Positions 3,046 through 26,840 of a stretch of 64,000 bases of DNA are shown piece by piece (within the stretch, counting starts at the first letter, position 1; each line of letters opens with the position of its first letter). The position numbers and the translations under genes were made by a program. The DNA comes from a phage, in sequence record PZ154895.1. One strand, given 5' to 3'. The notes below the pieces were generated by a model. The model was not told the origin of the DNA and ran no database searches. It saw nothing but the letters and a program-made list of their open reading frames with translations.

Positions 3046-4744
3046 TTGTGTATTGACCAGATGAAATAGAACTCATAGATGCCATTTTTTCTGTCCAATC
3101 ACCACCAACGTCCCAATCAACTGTCCCAGCAACTTTCCAAGAAAGATTTCCATTTACTGTATTAGTTTGATTTCCTTCAACTAAAGTGGTAGCATCCCCT
3201 TTAACTGTAATGTCAGCATTACCTTCAACTACAATAGTAACATTACCTTTGACTAGGATAGTTCCATTACCTTCAACTGTCTTAGTTTCATCGCCACGCA
3301 CAAATATTGTATTGCTTCCATCTATTTGGTGAAGACGATTATCCATGTTGTAATAAATTTCTGATCCACCGACGTTAGTCTTTTTATCGCCGGCTACTAA
3401 AAAATTACCGTCAGCATTTGTTATATCATACAAATTATCAACAGTTTTTCTTGTTCTTCTTCCTGATGGTGATACTTCCTCATACGTTCCAGTCGGATGA
3501 ACTAATCTGTATCGTTCTTGCCCAGGGGTATCATCAAATTCCTGAATATGACCGCTTTCAGTTTCCATTGTGTGAACATACGGATATTCACCTTTATATG
3601 AAGAAACAGGTTCTTTGAATAAAATTCTCGAATCATTCGGAATAGGAGGGTCAGCCGGGTCAGAAGACTTTGCTACAGTAGCAGCCATTGCTGACAAAGA
3701 CCTAGCTGGCGTTTTCACTTCAATACCGTATGATTCCAAATTCCCTGTAAGAATAATCATGGTAACACGGGATGCACGGCCTTTTGTTTGTTGATACCAC
3801 AATGAATCGCGTCCGGCTTTATATGCTTTTTCCCAATCTCCGGCTAACATAGCAGTTAACATTGTGTTAAATTTAGCTACACCGCCAACGCCCATTTGAA
3901 ATGCCATATTTTCTAACGCCATTTGACGAGAACGATTAACTGCCTGCCAAACTGGGCCAACTTTAGAATGTGATTTAATGTCACGTTGCATATCAGCCAA
4001 ATCACGTTCAAATAAAGCTACCGCTTCTTCCATTGTAATGGAACCTGGATTTCCGGTAATTTCACGACCAACTTGTTTTGATAAAACTTTATTAATTTGG
4101 GCCATATCACGAACTGGCTGCTTCATGATAAGATGACCAATACCAATTGTCGGATATCCTTCGGTATCCCAATAAACTTTTAGTCTTAATCCTTCATCAC
4201 GGCGAAGCATTTCAGCCATTGACATATTTGGATTATCATCAGTTGGAATCTCTGATAGTGGTCTATCATCGGGATTTATCGCAGTATCTAAATTGCTATC
4301 TTGGATAATATTAGAAGACGAATCATATCCTACTTCTCCGCCTTGGTTTAATACGTTAGTATCATTTCCTAGACGTCTAGGATACTGACCAGTTGGGTCA
4401 GAAAATCCTTCAAGTCTATTAGGTTTTTCGCGAACTATTCCGCCATACGTGCCAAGGACAATTCCGTTAGTTTTCCATTTGTCTAAAAAATGACCATAAA
4501 CTCTAGTTCCTTCTACCGGACCAGTAACGGAGCCTCCAATTCCAGACATTGCTGCAGAAGTTATAGGTTGAATAACTGACATCCATGGTAATTTATCAGT
4601 TGGAATACCCATTACGTCGCCTTGCGCTCTTTGAGGTGGATGCAGACCAACTACACGAACACGAACACGACCTAATTTTAATGGGTCCATTCTATCTTCA
4701 ACAACACCAACAAACCAATTAAGGTTATTACTTATCATTTCCAT
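3017..4744 (-). CDS. 5: baseplate hub/cell-puncturing protein gp5 with lysozyme domain
   Basis: 575 aa, same length as T4 gp5; internal T4-lysozyme-like motif GYPTIGIGHL; C-terminal VxGxxxxx beta-helix repeats. Confidence 0.95.
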   Translation of the reverse strand: MEMISNNLNWFVGVVEDRMDPLKLGRVRVRVVGLHPPQRAQGDVMGIPTDKLPWMSVIQPITSAAMSGIGGSVTGPVEGTRVYGHFLDKWKTNGIVLGTYGGIVREKPNRLEGFSDPTGQYPRRLGNDTNVLNQGGEVGYDSSSNIIQDSNLDTAINPDDRPLSEIPTDDNPNMSMAEMLRRDEGLRLKVYWDTEGYPTIGIGHLIMKQPVRDMAQINKVLSKQVGREITGNPGSITMEEAVALFERDLADMQRDIKSHSKVGPVWQAVNRSRQMALENMAFQMGVGGVAKFNTMLTAMLAGDWEKAYKAGRDSLWYQQTKGRASRVTMIILTGNLESYGIEVKTPARSLSAMAATVAKSSDPADPPIPNDSRILFKEPVSSYKGEYPYVHTMETESGHIQEFDDTPGQERYRLVHPTGTYEEVSPSGRRTRKTVDNLYDITNADGNFLVAGDKKTNVGGSEIYYNMDNRLHQIDGSNTIFVRGDETKTVEGNGTILVKGNVTIVVEGNADITVKGDATTLVEGNQTNTVNGNLSWKVAGTVDWDVGGDWTEKMASMSSISSGQYTIDGSRIDIG

Positions 4745-11452: not shown

Positions 11453-11528
11453 CGAGGCATAGCTCAGAAGGAAGAGCAAGGACCTTCTAAGTCCTAGGTC
11501 GTAGGTTCGATCCCTACTGCCTCGACCA
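11453..11528 (+). tRNA. tRNA-Arg (anticodon UCU)
   Basis: acceptor cgaggca/tgcctcg, D-arm AGCTCAGAAGGAAGAGC, anticodon stem aggac/gtcct, loop ctTCTaa. Confidence 0.85.
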
Positions 11529-11544
11529 ATTAAGTGAGGAAAAT

Positions 11545-11895
11545 ATGAAAGGTAATGTTTATTTAGTAGTTCATGATTTAACATTCTATTTTAATCACAA
11601 TGACACTGTTATTTCTGAACGTGTAATTAATTTGCTTTATCAGCATGCAGATTATGTTTATGTCGAAAACGAATATGGTCATTGGCAATTTCTCAAAAAT
11701 CGTTCATTTGGTTTAGATGGTTACGAATACTTTGAACGTAAAGACCTTTTAGATAAAATTCCGTTATCTACACAATATCAAAATCATAAGTCTTTACATA
11801 AATGCCGTCAAATTCGAAATGCTGAATCTGCGTATGAAGCAATTGATTTATGGCGTAAACGCCGTGAACAGATTGATGCTTTAAAAGAATACTAA
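11545..11895 (+). CDS. hypothetical protein
   Basis: 116 aa ORF directly after tRNA-Arg with SD GAGGAAAAT. Confidence 0.55.
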   Translation: MKGNVYLVVHDLTFYFNHNDTVISERVINLLYQHADYVYVENEYGHWQFLKNRSFGLDGYEYFERKDLLDKIPLSTQYQNHKSLHKCRQIRNAESAYEAIDLWRKRREQIDALKEY

Positions 11896-12234
11896 GAAAC
11901 CGGGTAGCTACCGGTAAGTCGTCGGACTGATGTTCCCTGCGTAAGGACTGGTCTTAATAAATCTTTACGATTTGTTAATATCCCCTTACATCACAGCAGA
12001 AACGGCGCACCGAATTATCGATTCGAGGAAATATCTTTGCCGTAAGCCGAGTAGCGTTTTTGACGGAACGTTCGGATATGGTCGAGATATGGCCTTTTAA
12101 AAATATTGAGTAGCGTCAACTGCTTAATAACCGGGTTCGAATCCCGGCGTTTCGTACAAACACTTGCCTTAGCAGGTGGAACCCCGACAAGGTTGCCGCA
12201 AGGCTTAGCCCCAACCGAAAGGTTGGGGCTTTTT
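11896..12234 (+). ncRNA. candidate stable structured RNA(s), by position analogous to T4 species 1/2 RNAs; ends in terminator
   Basis: 339 nt with no ORF of 60 aa or more; perfect T-arm-like hairpin ccggg-TTCGAAT-cccgg at 12131-12147; palindrome ccgggtagctaccgg at 11899-11915; terminator at 12207-12234. Confidence 0.35.
12207..12234 (+). terminator. rho-independent terminator
   Basis: hairpin agcccca-accgaaaggt-tggggct followed by TTTT. Confidence 0.7.
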
Positions 12235-12284
12235 AGTATAAATATAGTAGTATATTAAATCTACGAATTAAAACAGGAAATAAG

Positions 12285-12758
12285 ATGAAATCATATGCTC
12301 AATTTTTAAATGAAGCGGTGTTAAATGAAGCATCTAGCACCGAAATTCAAGCTGTCGCAAAAGCAGCCATTGCAGCGGGTAAATATTCCTATAAAGATGC
12401 TTCTGACGAATCACGATTCCAATTTGCTCGCGACATGAAAGCAGAAGGATTTACGGGAAATGCGGTTAGTATGGCCTGGAAAAGTTTAGTTGCTACTGGT
12501 GCTGCTTTTGCAAAGGCTTCGGGTAAACCTGCTCCTAAAGCAGATCCTAAAGCTACACAAGAAAAAAATATTGTTAAAGGAATTATCGCTAAGTATGAAG
12601 CTATCCTTAAAGAGCTTTTAGTAATCAAAACCGAAGGCCAAAAGTTAGCCCGTGCCTATAGTTTCAAAGATAATCCACATGTTCACTCTCTTGAGTATGT
12701 TGAAGACATCCAAAAAATTATTAAAGACCGCATTTGGTCTGCTAAACAAATCAAATAA
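12285..12758 (+). CDS. internal protein-like (CTS MKSYAQFLNE-A), Ala/Lys-rich
   Basis: 157 aa; N-terminus resembles T4 internal-protein capsid targeting sequence; followed by terminator. Confidence 0.55.
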   Translation: MKSYAQFLNEAVLNEASSTEIQAVAKAAIAAGKYSYKDASDESRFQFARDMKAEGFTGNAVSMAWKSLVATGAAFAKASGKPAPKADPKATQEKNIVKGIIAKYEAILKELLVIKTEGQKLARAYSFKDNPHVHSLEYVEDIQKIIKDRIWSAKQIK

Positions 12759-12766
12759 CATTCTTA

Positions 12767-12793
12767 ACCCCGACCAAAAGGTTGGGGCTTTTT
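12767..12793 (+). terminator. rho-independent terminator (paralog of 12207 hairpin)
   Basis: ccccgacc-aaaa-ggttgggg followed by CTTTTT. Confidence 0.7.
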
Positions 12794-12914
12794 GGTATCT
12801 AGGCCTTTCCGCGCCTCTCTAGGCATCATTTAGTTTATACACTTTATAATATATTATCCTATCCTTTAATTGCCCATCCCTTCCCTAGAATTCCCTAAAA
12901 CTTTTAAAAAAAAA

Positions 12915-12973
12915 TTTTTCACAAAACTGTTTACATCTCTGTTCTTCCGTGGTACTATACAACTATCAACTAC
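12915..12973 (+). repeat. repeated promoter/leader cassette, copy A1
   Basis: about 58 nt near-identical to 56437-56494 (ttcacaaaactgtttacatc...ggtactatacaactatcaact). Confidence 0.75.
12929..12958 (+). promoter_or_regulatory. early promoter GTTTACA-N17-TACTAT
   Basis: A/T-rich upstream element, -35 12929-12935, -10 12953-12958. Confidence 0.6.
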
Positions 12974-13001
12974 TGATACAGAAAACAACTTGGAGAATGA
13001 A

Positions 13002-13265
13002 ATGGATAATTACGGCGAACTGTTCAACTTCTTTATGAAATGTGTTTCAGAAGATTTCGGTCGTACAGTGAATGATATTAAAGTTATCGGTCCTGACCAT
13101 CCGATGTTTGAAACTTACGCAGTAATGGGTAATGAAGACGGTCAGTGGTATACTGTAAAGGTTGTGATTAACATGTTCACAGCAGAAGGTTATGATAAAC
13201 TGTCTTCTAAAGTTTATCATGATAACGACGAAATCGCAGAAGAATATTTCAATAATATGAAATAA
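13002..13265 (+). CDS. hypothetical protein
   Basis: 87 aa from ATG 13002 (SD GGAG); ORF-track N-terminal extension lies in the repeated promoter cassette. Confidence 0.55.
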   Translation: MDNYGELFNFFMKCVSEDFGRTVNDIKVIGPDHPMFETYAVMGNEDGQWYTVKVVINMFTAEGYDKLSSKVYHDNDEIAEEYFNNMK

Positions 13266-13302
13266 GTTTACACAGGCTCATGATTGAGATATTATGAGCC
13301 TG
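13266..13302 (+). promoter_or_regulatory. early promoter with stem-loop (PeSL-like)
   Basis: -35 GTTTACA at 13266-13272, -10 TATTAT at 13290-13295; 9-bp inverted repeat caggctcat/atgagcctg. Confidence 0.6.
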
Positions 13303-13320
13303 TAATTTGAGGAGAACATT

Positions 13321-13656
13321 ATGAAACGTAACTTTAGTAAAGCTTTTTGTAATCGAAATTATTATCCCGAAGAGCTTTTTGAATCTAAGGAATTTAAAGA
13401 GTTTAACGAACGTTCTCAAAACATGCCTGTGCAGTGGGTATTGGATTATGCCAATCGTATCTTTGAAGGCGTGCGGGATATTTGTCCTGATGATGAAGCT
13501 CCTTATTTTAAAAAGGCTTGGGAACTTGCTAACCAAGCATATATCAATGCTTTAGAATTTTCTAAAGGCACTGACGATGATTTTACTTTATTGGCTATCA
13601 ATGATGCCGTTATCGAAGCCATTGACATCTTTATCGATGAGCTAGACGAAGAATAA
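13321..13656 (+). CDS. hypothetical acidic protein
   Basis: 111 aa ORF, SD GAGGAG, early promoter upstream. Confidence 0.55.
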   Translation: MKRNFSKAFCNRNYYPEELFESKEFKEFNERSQNMPVQWVLDYANRIFEGVRDICPDDEAPYFKKAWELANQAYINALEFSKGTDDDFTLLAINDAVIEAIDIFIDELDEE

Positions 13657-13686
13657 GTTTACAATCTATTAGAAACGTGATATTAT
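13657..13686 (+). promoter_or_regulatory. early promoter GTTTACA-N17-TATTAT
   Basis: -35 at 13657-13663, -10 at 13681-13686. Confidence 0.55.
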
Positions 13687-13713
13687 CTAATTATATCAAC
13701 CTAAGGAAATACT

Positions 13714-14307
13714 ATGAACACACTGAAGAAAATTGTTGAGTTTATTCGCACTAAACTTGGTTCTGCTATGGCTAAAAATTTATCTGTTGAAGAACAGTAT
13801 ACTGCTGCAGCAGCAAAACTACTTGATAAAATTAAAGACCTAAAAACTGCTTCTGTTAAATCTATTAATGAAGAAAAACGTATTCGTGAACTTGTTGTTG
13901 AAAAGAATCGACAGGCCGAATCAAAAGAGCGTGAAATTCGTAAACTTCTTTCCGAAGGTCAAGATGTAACAATGCATGCTAAACTTGGTTTACTATATCG
14001 TCGAACAGCTGAGCAGTTGACTACTAAAGCTGACGGTTATGCTGAAATGCGAATTGAAATCGCCAAGAAAGTAGTTGAGTTAGATGATGCTCGCCAAGAA
14101 CTTGCAGTTAAATTGGAATATATCCGTGAAACTCGTGCAGCAAATGCCCTTGGAATTAGTACTGCCGATGATGTAGTTGAAATCGCAGCGCTGACTAAGG
14201 TTGATATTGAAGATACCCTTGCTCGAGTTGAAACCTTTAACGGTAATATTTCCGGGGTTGAAACTACCTCTGCCGATGTCCAGGAATATATTAATTCTCT
14301 GAAATAA
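13714..14307 (+). CDS. coiled-coil protein of unknown function
   Basis: 197 aa, heptad-rich Lys/Glu sequence throughout. Confidence 0.55.
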
Positions 14308-14348
14308 TGATAAGGGGCTTCGGCCCCTATTACTTGGAGTAAATAGGA

Positions 14349-14957
14349 ATGAAAATGCAAAGTGATTTCAATTCAATGTTTGAAGAGTTCCAAAGACAGG
14401 TTGATGTTCCAGATCAATTATTAAATGCTCTTAAACGTATGGCAGAAGGACGTAATTACTATTGGGGGTCTTCATATGAAACTGATGAAAGTCTTTCTGG
14501 AAGATTTTCTAGAGGTAAAAAGTCTTTAATACGTCCTGGAATACTTATTAACAGTATTGAATCAATTCATTCATTGACGTGTGATTTTGATGTTGAATTT
14601 ACTGATTTCATTTCTCCTGAATGGACAGTATGTTATTTAAACGACGATTTTGATTATCTCGGTGTTTATAGTTTAAGTGACGCATGGTTTAAACGTAACT
14701 TACAAAAGTCAAATTTATTCTATATTGATACTACAGTAAAATTTCAGGGAAAGAAATATTTCTTTACTCTTATAGTTGATTCTGAAACGAAACATGAAAA
14801 TAAACGTATTCTTAGTAAAAGGAATATCTTGAATATTGTTGATGATCTTTTTGATAAATTCGTGGAAAATCCTAGTTTTGAAAGCGATTTATTACTAGAA
14901 AAATTTGTTAAGGAATGTAGAGAATATGTCAAAGCCATCACTATACCTTCCAAGTAA
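14349..14957 (+). CDS. hypothetical protein
   Basis: 202 aa ORF after UUCG hairpin at 14313-14328. Confidence 0.5.
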   Translation: MKMQSDFNSMFEEFQRQVDVPDQLLNALKRMAEGRNYYWGSSYETDESLSGRFSRGKKSLIRPGILINSIESIHSLTCDFDVEFTDFISPEWTVCYLNDDFDYLGVYSLSDAWFKRNLQKSNLFYIDTTVKFQGKKYFFTLIVDSETKHENKRILSKRNILNIVDDLFDKFVENPSFESDLLLEKFVKECREYVKAITIPSK

Positions 14958-15318
14958 ACCTTTGAAGTATGAATTAAAGCGCCAGCTAATTTCTACTGAT
15001 GTATTAATAGGTCCTGTTATACTCATATCATTTGTAATTCTATTGATTATTGGAGGTGTTTTAGATGTTATGACTGATATTGATTCTGGCGAAATACTTG
15101 TGTTAATGCTAATTCTTCCATTAATAGTTCCACTTTTATTAGTACCTGTAAATTGGATAGGATATTGGTATCAAGGAAGACATTATCGTAAACGTGTACG
15201 TGATTGGAAAGCACAGTGTAAAAAGATTAAAAAGGAACACCAGCTTAAACTTGCTGAGTATGAATTTAATGAAATTATGAAATTTGTTAAGGAATCACGA
15301 TGCAAAAGCCAAAACTAA
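14926..15318 (+). CDS. membrane protein (family of three tandem paralogs)
   Basis: hydrophobic helices; C-terminal tail ..KFVKESRCK similar to the next two ORFs; start chosen at ATG 14926. Confidence 0.5.
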   Translation: MSKPSLYLPSKPLKYELKRQLISTDVLIGPVILISFVILLIIGGVLDVMTDIDSGEILVLMLILPLIVPLLLVPVNWIGYWYQGRHYRKRVRDWKAQCKKIKKEHQLKLAEYEFNEIMKFVKESRCKSQN

Positions 15319-15662
15319 ATAAAGTCAAATATTCGTTCCCCGAGGCACTATTAATTCTTGCTGTGTCAGTATTTGCAGCTCTTGCTGGTAGTCTTATTGG
15401 ATTGTTAATTGACTGTATTATTTTAAACATCGATGGTTCAGCAATTATAACAGAGGTTTGGAGTGAACTTCGTTTTACTATAGCGATTACATTATTTTCA
15501 TTCTTTGGTACCATGCTATATTTTCATTATGATAATTTTAAAATAAATTGGCAAAGAAAAAAGGATTACAAAATACAATTAAAGGAATATAATAACTACA
15601 TGTCTTATATTGAAAAAGAATCAATGGAAGAGTTTGTGAGTGATTGTAGGAAAATTAAATGA
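15300..15662 (+). CDS. membrane protein (paralog family)
   Basis: 120 aa, two TM helices, C-terminal ..EFVSDCRKIK. Confidence 0.5.
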   Translation: MQKPKLNKVKYSFPEALLILAVSVFAALAGSLIGLLIDCIILNIDGSAIITEVWSELRFTIAITLFSFFGTMLYFHYDNFKINWQRKKDYKIQLKEYNNYMSYIEKESMEEFVSDCRKIK

Positions 15663-16147
15663 TTTTAAAAACTCGTTGGTATGATTTAGATGATGGGGAC
15701 GATGGCATTTCAGTTGATAGAGTTGACTGGAATGGCTGTTCCGAAGATATGAAAAATTTGCTGATTAGGGAGTTTAGAATGGGATATCAACCAGTTAAGC
15801 CATCTACTGCAACAGATGATAAATTCGTGTGTATTCATAATGGTCGCGCTAAATTAACGAACGCTGATTGGTTCACAGATAAGATTATGATTCTGTGGTA
15901 TATTATTAGTTTTCCTGTGACATCATTTGTATTTTGCTTCTTTGGAGAAAGTCCAGTAGGCAGAACGGGAGATTGGATTCTTTTAATCATACTTGTTAAT
16001 ATTTTTACAGCAGCAGTACTATCAGGAATATGGTGCGTGTTCATTGAAATGCCATGGCGTTTACGTAGGCAGCAAAAGATTTTTGATGAAAAGAAATATA
16101 CTCAAAATTTAAATAATTTTATCACCGAATGCAGGAAATTAAAATGA
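15659..16147 (+). CDS. membrane protein (paralog family)
   Basis: 162 aa, two TM helices, C-terminal ..NFITECRKLK. Confidence 0.5.
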   Translation: MILKTRWYDLDDGDDGISVDRVDWNGCSEDMKNLLIREFRMGYQPVKPSTATDDKFVCIHNGRAKLTNADWFTDKIMILWYIISFPVTSFVFCFFGESPVGRTGDWILLIILVNIFTAAVLSGIWCVFIEMPWRLRRQQKIFDEKKYTQNLNNFITECRKLK

Positions 16148-16584
16148 AAACATTATCAGCTGGTATTATCTTTATGACAGAAGATAAAGATTTATTCATG
16201 GGACGGGTTACTGGTTCTCGTAAGCCTGGAATGATGGCACATCGCTGGGATATTCCAAAAGGCCGTGTAGAAAATTCTGATTTGAGCGCACTAGATGCAG
16301 CACGAAGAGAATGCTTAGAAGAGACCGGTTTTAGCAATTATAATCCAGACCTTCTAGAAGACCTAGGTGTATTTAAATATTCTAGTAATAAAGACTTACA
16401 GTTGTTTTATTATACGATTCCAGTAGAGCATGAGATGTTTAGAAATTGCCATTGTGAGTCTTATTTTGAAAATAAAGATGGCGTTATGATTCCAGAAATG
16501 GATGCTTTTGCTCTTATTCCTCGTACTCAGTGGCAATATGTGATGGGTCCTTCACTTTACCGAATAATGAACAGCCTCTTTTAA
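16144..16584 (+). CDS. nudE: Nudix hydrolase NudE
   Basis: Nudix box (RECLEETGF); immediately upstream of lysozyme gene as T4 e.1/nudE; ATGA-coupled start at 16144. Confidence 0.8.
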   Translation: MKTLSAGIIFMTEDKDLFMGRVTGSRKPGMMAHRWDIPKGRVENSDLSALDAARRECLEETGFSNYNPDLLEDLGVFKYSSNKDLQLFYYTIPVEHEMFRNCHCESYFENKDGVMIPEMDAFALIPRTQWQYVMGPSLYRIMNSLF

Positions 16585-16586
16585 TT

Positions 16587-16607
16587 TATAAATACCTTCT
16601 ATAAATA
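16587..16607 (+). promoter_or_regulatory. two tandem late promoters TATAAATA upstream of e
   Basis: TATAAATA at 16587-16594 and 16600-16607, then SD AGGAGG. Confidence 0.65.
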
Positions 16608-16620
16608 CTTAGGAGGTATT

Positions 16621-17109
16621 ATGAATATATTTGAAATGTTACGTATAGATGAAGGTCTTAGACTGACTTTATACAAAGACACTGAAGGCTTTTGGACGAT
16701 TGGCATAGGCCATTTAGTAACAAAGAACCCGTCTTTAGCCGTAGCTAAAGCTGAACTTGACAGAATGATCGGACGTAAATGCAACGGTACAATTACCCTT
16801 GATGAGGCTGAAAAGCTATTTAATGAAGACGTTGATAAAGCCGTTCGCGGAATCTTGGGTAATGCTAAACTTAAACCGGTATATGATTCTTTAGATGCAG
16901 TTCGTCGATGTGCGTTGGTCAATATGGTCTTCCAAATGGGCGTAGCAGGCGTCGCTGGTTTTACTAATTCTCTTCGTATGCTTCAACAGAAACGTTGGGA
17001 CGAAGCGGCAGTAAATCTAGCCCAATCTAAATGGTATCGTCAGACACCTAATCGCGCGAAACGCGTAATCTCAACATTTAAAACAGGAACTTGGAAAGCG
17101 TATATATGA
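16621..17109 (+). CDS. e: endolysin (T4 lysozyme)
   Basis: 162 aa beginning [15 protein letters not shown]; near-identical to T4 lysozyme as recalled; two late promoters upstream. Confidence 0.97.
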
Positions 17110-17387
17110 AAACATATAGTGAATTTTTATCAGAATCTATTCTTAACGAAGCTACTGACACATTTGCAACTAAGTTAGGTGCAGCTTTGGTTGAAGCCGA
17201 AAGTCTATTAGCACGTATTTCTGAACTTGCTAGTAAGATAGATACTCGCAAATTTGAACGTACCAGCGATATCGTTAAGCTTGAAGCCTTGTTGCGTATG
17301 TGCGATAAACCAGAAGAAATCGCTAAGAACGGCTCGCTAATGAAACAACGTCTTGAAAAATATATTTCAGGCGCTTCAGAAAAATAG
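17106..17387 (+). CDS. internal protein-like ([17 protein letters not shown])
   Basis: 93 aa; paralog of ORF 8824-9081 (shared ..[13 protein letters not shown]..). Confidence 0.55.
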
Positions 17388-17388
17388 T

Positions 17389-17442
17389 GTTTACTTCCTC
17401 CAAGGACTTTGATACTATACATTCATCAACTACTTGGAGGAA
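17389..17442 (+). promoter_or_regulatory. early promoter with stem-loop (PeSL-like) upstream of denV
   Basis: -35 GTTTACT, -10 TACTAT at 17413-17418; 10-bp inverted repeat ttcctccaag (17394-17403) / cttggaggaa (17433-17442) that includes the SD. Confidence 0.6.
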
Positions 17443-17445
17443 GTT

Positions 17446-17862
17446 ATGACTCGTATCAATTTAACACTTGTTTCTGAACTGACCGACCAACATCTTATGG
17501 CTGAGTATCGTGAATTGCCGCGTGTTTTTGGTATAGTTCGTAAACATGCGGCAAATGGTAAGCGGGTTAAAGATTTTAAAATATCTTCCGAGTTTATTTT
17601 AGGCTCTGGTCATGTTACGTTCTTTTACGATAAGTTAGAATTTTTGCGAAAGCGCCAATCAGACATTATAACGGAATGCTTAAAACGTGGGTTTAGTATA
17701 AAAGATACTGAAGTTCCTGACATCAGCGATATTCCAGCAGAATGGAAAAACGATTATAATCCATGCAAATCAGCTATTAAATTGAGTCAACAACGACTCG
17801 ATGAAAAAATTTTAATGAAGCCACACTGGTACAAGTATTACGGCAAAAATATTTACATTTAA
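17446..17862 (+). CDS. denV: endonuclease V (pyrimidine dimer DNA glycosylase)
   Basis: 138 aa beginning [23 protein letters not shown]; matches T4 DenV as recalled. Confidence 0.92.
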
Positions 17863-26378: not shown

Positions 26379-26840
26379 ATGATTATTAATGAAAGCTCTT
26401 GGCACTATAAATTATTCAAAATGTTTAATGATGAATGGAAACGACCTAAGACACTGTGCGCGTATTTTTGGTCTATTGTTATTCCTACATTTTTCGTTTC
26501 TTTTTTCGGATGTACTATACTCGCAGGTCTAACTATCATCTGTGCAGAAATCATACAGAAATGGCTTATTTTTGGTAGTTTATGGACTCTTATTCCATCA
26601 GCATTTATACTTGCCATTTTGCTTGTTTTACTTATTATTGGTTCATTTGTTATTCCTGCACAACTGCGTGAAAAATATAAAGATTATAAATGGAAAAAGG
26701 ATTATGCTTTACATGTAGAAAATATTGATAGGGCGTATAAAGGTTTACCTCCTATTCAACCTAAGAAATCTATTATCGTCGAATTTTTAAAAGCGCGTAA
26801 AGCTAAAGTATGTCCTGTTATTGAATATAAGGCTGAATGA
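26379..26840 (+). CDS. membrane protein
   Basis: 153 aa with three hydrophobic helices, basic C-terminal tail. Confidence 0.5.
   Translation: MIINESSWHYKLFKMFNDEWKRPKTLCAYFWSIVIPTFFVSFFGCTILAGLTIICAEIIQKWLIFGSLWTLIPSAFILAILLVLLIIGSFVIPAQLREKYKDYKWKKDYALHVENIDRAYKGLPPIQPKKSIIVEFLKARKAKVCPVIEYKAE

Follow-up and report, generated by a model that had tools for sequence, protein, structure and literature searches.

A C-terminal peptide shared by three predicted membrane proteins and a soluble neighbour in the e.5–nudE region of a T4-like phage

Introduction

Bacteriophage T4 is the best-studied large phage, and to our knowledge about half of its genes, including e.2–e.8, have no known role. The 64,000-nt stretch of phage DNA analysed here (sequence record PZ154895.1; hereafter the window, to which positions refer unless stated otherwise) carries, immediately upstream of nudE, three consecutive small open reading frames (ORFs) that the original prediction, made from the letters alone, took for a triplet of tandem membrane-protein paralogues with related C-terminal ends. 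The locus raises the questions of whether these ORFs are indeed related, how far the resemblance of their ends extends, and whether that resemblance belongs to the proteins or to the gene junctions that overlap it.

Judged by its sequence, the window belongs to a T4-like phage (Tequatrovirus). A 2.35-kb stretch around the three ORFs is 95–97% identical in DNA to many Tequatrovirus genomes, and the local gene order, e.8, e.7, e.6, e.5, e.4, e.3, e.2, nudE, e (lysozyme) and denV, is the same in T4 (NC_000866), the T4 minus strand corresponding to the window + strand; e.4 sits between e.5 and e.3 in the e–segB region, again matching T4. DNA identity, T4 gene order and full-length PHROG matches together identify 14926–15318 (ATG..TAA), 15300–15662 (ATG..TGA) and 15659–16147 (ATG..TGA) as orthologues of the T4 early genes e.4, e.3 and e.2, so that the comparison with T4 e.2–e.6 proposed in the original prediction gave full-length matches and conserved synteny. 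The genes are as follows:

14349..14957, + strand, e.5 orthologue, 202 aa, soluble, without a transmembrane (TM) segment (PHROG 2607, E 7.5e-109; T4 synteny)
14926..15318, + strand, e.4 orthologue, 130 aa (PHROG 2604, E 1.2e-70 over 1-130/130)
15300..15662, + strand, e.3 orthologue, 120 aa (PHROG 2330, E 1.9e-57)
15659..16147, + strand, e.2 orthologue, full-length form, 162 aa (PHROG 2203 'membrane protein', E 1.1e-79)
16129..16584, + strand, nudE, Nudix hydrolase, overlapped by e.2 (Pfam NUDIX, E 1e-13; T4 synteny)

Results

C-Terminal Motif and Tail Homology

The four genes preceding nudE all end in a variant of the motif F-[IV]-x-[ED]-[CS]-R, and part of its coding sequence, or the codons directly after it, often serve as the Shine-Dalgarno sequence (SD) of the following gene:

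14904..14921, + strand, motif copy 1, FVKECR in e.5
15283..15300, + strand, motif copy 2, FVKESR in e.4; its internal AAGGA, 6 nt upstream of the e.3 ATG, is the SD of that gene
15633..15650, + strand, motif copy 3, FVSDCR in e.3; the AGGAAA ('RK') after it is the SD of e.2
16118..16135, + strand, motif copy 4, FITECR in e.2; the AGGAAA after it is the SD for the nudE ATG at 16144

Over six frames of the 64-kb window the pattern occurs five times against 0.44 occurrences expected from composition, and four of the five matches lie in these four consecutive genes, 9–17 residues from the stop codons; the motif is not a product of chance. When a looser pattern was applied to the rest of T4 (106 kb), no copy was found in an ORF. 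The three ORFs and their tails (..KFVKESRCKSQN, ..EFVSDCRKIK and ..NFITECRKLK) are exactly as first described, and the e.5 tail (..EKFVKECREYVKAITIPSK) is a fourth carrier of the motif that had been overlooked. The idea of a triplet is therefore apt for three related membrane proteins but not for the motif, which the soluble e.5 protein carries as well.

Plain pairwise BLASTP among e.4, e.3 and e.2 gave weak matches (E 0.006–0.1). Profiles built with members from three genera, compared by hhalign, aligned e.4 with e.3 (probability 92%, E 7e-7, 43 columns) and e.3 with e.2 (probability 94–95%, E 5e-8 to 1e-7, 37 columns running from the end of the second TM helix, TM2, to the C-terminus), and matched e.5 to e.2 (E 7e-5, 14 columns) and to e.3 (E 2e-4). 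Scores were 43–50 for e.4–e.3 and e.3–e.2 and 31–35 for the comparisons with e.5; those of the controls, consisting of reversed and 40 column-shuffled templates, never exceeded 20.6. Because the real scores exceed all reversed and shuffled controls, these profiles identify the tails of e.4 and e.3, and those of e.3 and e.2, as homologous, with e.4 and e.2 linked only through e.3. The C-terminal relatedness first claimed for all three proteins thus stands for two of the pairs; for the third it is marginal in direct comparison and otherwise only transitive, via e.3. In the same comparisons e.5 has just the terminal peptide in common with the membrane proteins, and e.4 and e.3 share in addition an N-terminal M-x-K-P-x-L...K-Y.

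Two other matches to the e.2 profile were set aside. The window ORF 26379–26840 reached E 0.008 among 1038 ORFs and lacks the motif, so it was not counted as a member, and the match of a 2100-aa protein (P0199) was a spurious repeat match. The 153-aa product of ORF 26379–26840 has a basic tail and contains two or three helices that are hydrophobic.

Membrane Topology

Hydropathy was assessed with our own scripts for the Goldman–Engelman–Steitz (GES) and Kyte–Doolittle scales rather than a dedicated topology predictor, using a GES cut-off of about -20 kcal/mol. The proteins e.4, e.3 and e.2 each contain exactly two 20-residue segments, with GES values of -27 to -48 kcal/mol, and e.5 has no GES segment of TM strength. 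The predicted segments, all on the + strand and by GES, are:

e.4: TM1 aa 27–46 (nt 15004–15063), TM2 aa 57–76 (nt 15094–15153), tail aa 77–130
e.3: TM1 aa 18–37 (nt 15351–15410), TM2 aa 57–76 (nt 15468–15527), tail aa 77–120
e.2: TM1 aa 76–95 (nt 15884–15943), TM2 aa 110–129 (nt 15986–16045), tail aa 130–162

The inter-helix loops are 10–19 residues long with 0–1 K/R and 2–4 D/E, and the flanks are K/R-rich, the tails having K+R/D+E ratios of 15/6 (e.4), 10/8 (e.3) and 9/4 (e.2); e.4, for example, combines a basic N-terminus, an acidic loop and a basic tail of cytoplasmic type. Given the K/R-rich flanks and acidic loops, the positive-inside rule predicts that all three are two-helix hairpins in the inner membrane with both termini in the cytoplasm (N-in/C-in). 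They have one architecture in common, namely a cytoplasmic N-terminus, two TM helices, a basic tail and a terminal F-[IV]-x-[ED]-C-[RK] (in e.4 with S, I or V for C), to which e.2 adds a predicted cytoplasmic N-domain (aa 1–75) with a conserved W..LDDG..GI....VDW.GC. AlphaFold2 (AF2) models place helices at residues 24–49, 54–105 and 111–127 of e.4 (predicted local distance difference test, pLDDT, 66) and at 69–95 and 103–161 of e.2 (pLDDT 49.5, so that the fold of its N-domain is not interpretable). The hydrophobic helices of the original prediction were accordingly recovered by the topology check it had called for, as two GES segments in each of the three proteins, and the AF2 helices agree with them. 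When the e.4 model was compared with viral structures in Foldseek, the sole match was its own orthologue.

Column entropy, computed from cluster representatives compared within Tequatrovirus, is lowest in the tails (0.13–0.20 bits), followed by the N-terminal parts (0.19–0.31), and reaches 0.39–0.93 in the TM helices and loops. Gene overlaps account for only the first or last 6–10 residues of this tail and N-terminal conservation. The low tail entropy indicates that, under the predicted topology, the conserved surface of e.4, e.3 and e.2 is cytoplasmic. The hairpin has the appearance of an anchor, or else diversification may be under way in its loop.

Protein-Level Selection and Dual Coding

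The motif was real as first described, but its overlap with the SD of the next gene had been missed. At five junctions the codons for 'KE' (AAGGAA or AAGGAG) form an SD 6–9 nt before the next ATG, and at the ends of the window e.3 and e.2 genes this part is played instead by AGGAAA, the codons for 'RK'. Two of the junctions also share an exact direct repeat:

14901..14916, + strand, 16-nt repeat AAATTTGTTAAGGAAT, copy 1, e.5/e.4 junction
15280..15295, + strand, 16-nt repeat AAATTTGTTAAGGAAT, copy 2, e.4/e.3 junction

The motif might accordingly be without function in the proteins, a relic of tandem duplication that is kept by dual coding (SD and start) and by homogenisation of the junctions. 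Both the SD codons and the exact repeat favour such an origin, as do the near-identical start regions that bound the gain or loss of e.4 and the behaviour of another tandem family in related phages (ending ..WVSSSxxC before the stop), which likewise keeps its C-terminus and a TAAGGA junction.

The pattern of variation argues the other way. Since the SD shifts between the 'KE' and 'RK' codons, it occupies different positions in the motif from gene to gene without disturbing the alignment of F, I/V, E/D, C and R. Among 25 distinct DNA versions of the motif, drawn from 22 loci, Arg has five codons (CGT, CGC, CGA, AGA and AGG), and Cys (TGT, TGC) and Ile (ATT, ATC) have two each; the use of both Arg codon families, CGN and AGR, indicates selection as protein. 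SP18 and JS98 encode e.5-like proteins whose motif (FIAECREY) is placed 40 nt upstream of the following start codon, and that start has a separate SD. The motif is also kept across Tequatrovirus, Gaprivervirus and Dhakavirus and in metagenomic relatives of e.2 with 22–35% identity. A profile search of 1.84 billion representative proteins returned only 16 e.2 relatives (cluster representatives), and in those at 22–35% identity I2, W7, D11, G16, W24, C27, I155, C158 and R159 are invariant and F154 nearly so, with the F, I, C and R of the motif preserved although the downstream genes differ. The motif is thus both a protein feature and a nucleotide signal, with the protein level dominating, and a relic without protein function is rather unlikely.

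Gene Gain, Loss and Recombination

The genes e.4 and e.3 co-occur in about 670 phage records, and e.2 is found in 540. Tequatrovirus and the T4-like contigs L037–L039 preserve the adjacency of e.2 and nudE; in Dhakavirus and the T4-like contigs L040/L041 one small acidic ORF lies between them. Composition of the cluster varies. JK45-type Tequatroviruses have e.5-e.4-e.3 and no e.2 at that position, and in Dhakaviruses e.2 is about 4 kb from the e.3-like gene. In SP18, e.4 is bordered on both sides by start regions that are nearly identical (A-rich SD, GGTTCnnAATG); genomes of the JS98 type are without e.4, and the breakpoint falls inside these regions. An in-frame e.4(1–31)::e.2(86–162) hybrid, joined inside TM1 at a TCCTGT microhomology, is present in UFV05 and UFV06 and removes e.3 entirely. 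Contigs L040/L041 encode an extra 101-aa two-TM protein (4008–4313) ending ..NLENFIKECRGK (..NFIKECRGK); between it and e.2 lies a conserved 228-aa ORF (MNxxKxFxSQARAVG...EFPMEGW), which is also found ahead of e.2 in Dhakaviruses. These arrangements are compatible with a cluster that has expanded and contracted through recombination at similar junctions, and the existence of hybrid, e.4-less and e.2-less genomes implies that e.4, e.3 and e.2 are individually dispensable.

Such exchanges raise the possibility that e.4, e.3 and e.2 are not full-length paralogues, and that unrelated membrane genes, along with e.5, gained a C-terminal cassette and start region by junction recombination. Recombination of this kind is documented here, the similarity is limited to the tail (e.4–e.3, e.3–e.2) or to 11–17 residues (e.5, e.4–e.2), and e.5 is soluble and has nothing else in common with the others. 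The e.4–e.3 and e.3–e.2 alignments, however, span 37–43 columns from the end of TM2, well past any such cassette; the architecture is the same in all three proteins, e.4 and e.3 also match at the N-terminal M-x-K-P-x-L...K-Y, and the natural hybrid is joined in frame at equivalent TM1 positions. We consider acquisition of a cassette by otherwise unrelated genes unlikely.

Two further arrangements were seen in related phages. JK45 (L003 3231–4025), SP18 (L004 2984–4252) and JS98 (L006 1147–2389) carry, directly downstream of the e.3-like gene, a tandem array of 3–5 small soluble proteins that is absent from the window and T4. They end G-x-W-V-S-S-S-x-x-C followed by TAA-GGA, the stop and the next codon providing the SD of the next gene, and represent a second case of tandem paralogues with a conserved C-terminus and junction. 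In the short ENA contigs P0143 and P0206, residues 1–35 of e.4 and the last 21 residues of e.2 are each joined to parts of an HTH_11-type ORF, which suggests that a foreign gene replaced the segment from the e.4 C-terminal part through e.3 to the e.2 N-terminal part in some phage.

Expression, Dispensability and Annotation

The T4 e.2–e.6 RNAs are classed as early and all of the proteins have been detected, e.4 and e.5 with early timing, e.2 and e.6 with middle and e.3 with late (PMC9697503 supplement), in line with the early expression originally assumed. Knockdown of e.2–e.6 in T4 by CRISPRi-ART carried no fitness cost ('Not Fit'), and the same source lists their prior essentiality as unknown (PMC11879866 supplement). 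T4 e.4, e.3 and e.2 are annotated as 'conserved hypothetical, predicted membrane protein'. The T4 reference e.2 (NC_000866 2560–2961, minus strand) has lost 1 nt from an A-run and gained a compensating 1 nt 77 nt further downstream; the shifted frame between the two changes holds a stop, leaving 102 aa without TM2 and tail, and the remainder of the 162-aa ORF is intact beyond the frameshifts (compare window 15890–16060). The resequenced T4 genome MT984581 also matches e.2 in two pieces. The module appears to be dispensable in laboratory E. coli.

The genes e.4, e.3 and e.2 are members of catalogued T4 families, and as an object the locus is already known. Homologues of e.4 form 98 clusters, all with the precomputed family PF26873, those of e.3 form 46 (e.3 itself being 78% identical to the T4 protein), and those of e.2 carry the precomputed PF26896. 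Searches of the local Pfam-A copy, which is older than these two families, and of NCBIfam and PADLOC gave no family for e.5, e.4, e.3 or e.2, and searches of PDB sequences with e.5, e.6 and the e.2 profile were empty. The names 'sulfurtransferase' and 'DNA primase' given to e.3/e.4 in several GenBank genomes are not supported by Pfam or NCBIfam. Text searches of the literature on e.2–e.6 found no functional study, and the HIDEN-SEQ preprint is silent on these genes in its main text. Within the reach of these searches, the terminal peptide that e.5 has in common with the membrane proteins, the homology of the tails, the concentration of conservation on the cytoplasmic side and the hybrid and loss variants appear to be unreported.

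Directly upstream of the module, e.6 (13714–14307) encodes 197 aa that by eye are helical and coiled-coil-like. Several deposited genomes call it 'host specificity protein', a name that neither Pfam nor NCBIfam backs, and by sequence e.6 has no Pfam or PDB relative. A resemblance to PspA/ESCRT-III was suspected and dropped, as the sequence gives it no support.

T4 Imm, Sp and RI are small early inner-membrane proteins that are non-essential in the laboratory. The original prediction hinted at a part in superinfection exclusion or lysis timing, which would place the proteins with Imm/Sp or with holins/antiholins, and the e-gene products resemble Imm, Sp and RI in being small, early, located (by prediction) in the inner membrane and laboratory-nonessential; their predicted periplasmic loop is also the most variable part, as might be expected of a surface that meets other phages. 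Yet the conserved parts are cytoplasmic rather than periplasmic, the loops are only 10–19 residues long, and no phenotype has been reported. The e.4, e.3 and e.2 profiles had no other significant match among the window and T4 ORFs, which include the sp, ac, rI, rIII and t loci, so no T4 ORF outside the cluster is related to them in sequence. Neither these profile searches nor Pfam, where only chance-level matches appeared at E up to 1, gave any homology to Imm or Sp. The proteins likewise show no homology to T, RI or RIII and do not have the architecture of one TM or signal-anchor-release (SAR) segment plus a periplasmic domain, and PADLOC, NCBIfam and PDB gave no match to defence or counter-defence families. 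With no Pfam, NCBIfam, PADLOC or PDB match, no ORF homology and, in T4, knockdown without a phenotype (PMC11879866 supplement), the hint is not supported, and we regard an exclusion or lysis-timing role of this type as quite unlikely.

Gene Junctions and Transcription

As the original prediction noted, each ORF overlaps its neighbours: by 32 nt at e.5/e.4, 19 nt at e.4/e.3, 4 nt (ATGA) at e.3/e.2, and at e.2/nudE by 19 nt if nudE begins at its annotated start, 16129, or by 4 nt (ATGA) if it begins at the ATG at 16144. The latter has AGGA 8 nt upstream and the ATG at 16129 is without an SD, so NudE probably starts at 16144 and has 146 aa rather than 151. Every downstream gene has its own SD. 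The junction RNAs form no stable structure (z +1.4, -0.06, -1.6 and +1.0), so nothing in them would enforce translational coupling, which the overlaps only suggest. An Rfam scan of 11500–17500 was empty. That the conserved element is RNA, whether a RegA- or RegB-type translational regulator or nuclease site or a structured coupling element, is scarcely credible: the 16-nt repeat AAAUUUGUUAAGGAAU is A/U-rich, lies at start regions and may loosely resemble the RegA consensus from systematic evolution of ligands by exponential enrichment (SELEX), but codons vary while amino acids are preserved, the junctions have neither stable structure nor an Rfam match, and no GGAG RegB site lies within the motif.

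Consensus scans placed sigma-70-like promoters before e.8, e.7 and e.6. The best match upstream of e.6 is:

13658..13686, + strand, sigma-70-like promoter, TTTACA-17-TATTAT with TG (consensus match only)

This is the nearest strong + strand candidate upstream of the e.6-e.5-e.4-e.3-e.2-nudE run. Matches in the interval from e.5 to nudE fall within ORFs, and their scores do not exceed those of the upstream ones, a pattern consistent with co-transcription of the module. In the e.6–e.5 spacer, 14313–14328 forms a perfect GC-rich hairpin with a UUCG loop (AGGGGCUUCGGCCCCU); GC-rich hairpins with such loops are typical intercistronic stabilisers in T4.

Discussion

The explanation that we favour, by a modest degree, is a composite one. 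The genes e.5, e.4, e.3 and e.2 would constitute one early, co-transcribed accessory module that was expanded by duplication and by recombination at similar gene junctions. The hairpin of the membrane proteins would serve mainly as an anchor, and the cytoplasmic tail, because it has the lowest column entropy, would be the working end at the inner face of the membrane. By means of the common terminal peptide, the four proteins might bind the same cytoplasmic partner or bundle together, and their role would most likely be a host- or condition-specific one in takeover, counter-defence or exclusion.

Several points weigh against this explanation. The motif deviates in e.4, where S, I or V replaces the Cys, and a Cys follows two residues later or, in SP18, is absent. 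The direct hhalign comparison of e.4 with e.2 was not significant (E 0.002–0.003, 11 columns, probability 9–12%), and searches of hidden Markov models against sequences between the families reach only E 0.08–0.9. Dual coding, through gene overlaps and SDs, gives part of the tail conservation; co-transcription is based on consensus promoter scans only; and the AF2 models are of low confidence, with no usable model for the e.2 N-domain. Docking or assembly is the weakest link, a pure inference.

A more specific proposal, to which we give only a slim chance, is that the terminal helices of e.5, e.4, e.3 and e.2 act as an assembly code and bundle into a hetero-oligomer on the cytoplasmic side of the inner membrane, in which the conserved Cys and Arg might hold a metal or a common ligand or partner, such as a host factor or the product of nudE, the gene always found next to them. 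If true, this would amount to a previously unrecognised multi-subunit membrane machine of T-even phages in place of four orphan genes without relation to each other.

Four orphan ORFs become one testable module in which F, C and R are the residues to mutate. The locus also illustrates how, in the hyperplastic regions of T4-type genomes, overlapping junctions both limit the ends of proteins and bring about the gain and loss of genes. Small membrane paralogues arrayed in tandem in such a region of T4 will not surprise the specialist; no new kind of system is revealed, and the practical value is moderate.

The closest known counterparts are the T4 proteins e.4, e.3 and e.2 (NP_049740, NP_049739 and NP_049738), orthologues encoded in the same order, e.5-e.4-e.3-e.2-nudE-e, as in the window. 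Protein identity is 78–96% across the Tequatrovirus records sampled, and the main difference concerns e.2, cut to 102 aa in T4 by its two compensating frameshifts and full-length (162 aa) here. T4 Imm/Sp and RI/RIII/T are likewise small, early or accessory, membrane-associated T-even proteins that are dispensable in standard hosts. Unlike them, the e-gene proteins have their conserved part in a cytoplasmic tail and terminal peptide instead of a periplasmic domain, and a sequence relation is not detectable.

At the level of genome organisation, Arbiol, Comeau and Krisch are said to have described, in 2010, shuffling of T4-type hyperplastic regions at short conserved junctions, with promoter-early stem-loop cassettes. 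The e.5–nudE region resembles these cassettes in that boundary repeats accompany the gain, loss or duplication of small early genes, as in the presence or absence of e.4 and the e.4::e.2 hybrid, and differs in that the repeat is coding sequence plus SD and the junction RNA is unstructured. At the level of the proteins, although the e-gene peptide matches none of their sequences, C-terminal docking motifs such as clamp-binding and ClpX-recognition tails provide an analogy of mechanism, as distinct from membership: they too are short conserved end peptides carried by differing proteins of one genome.

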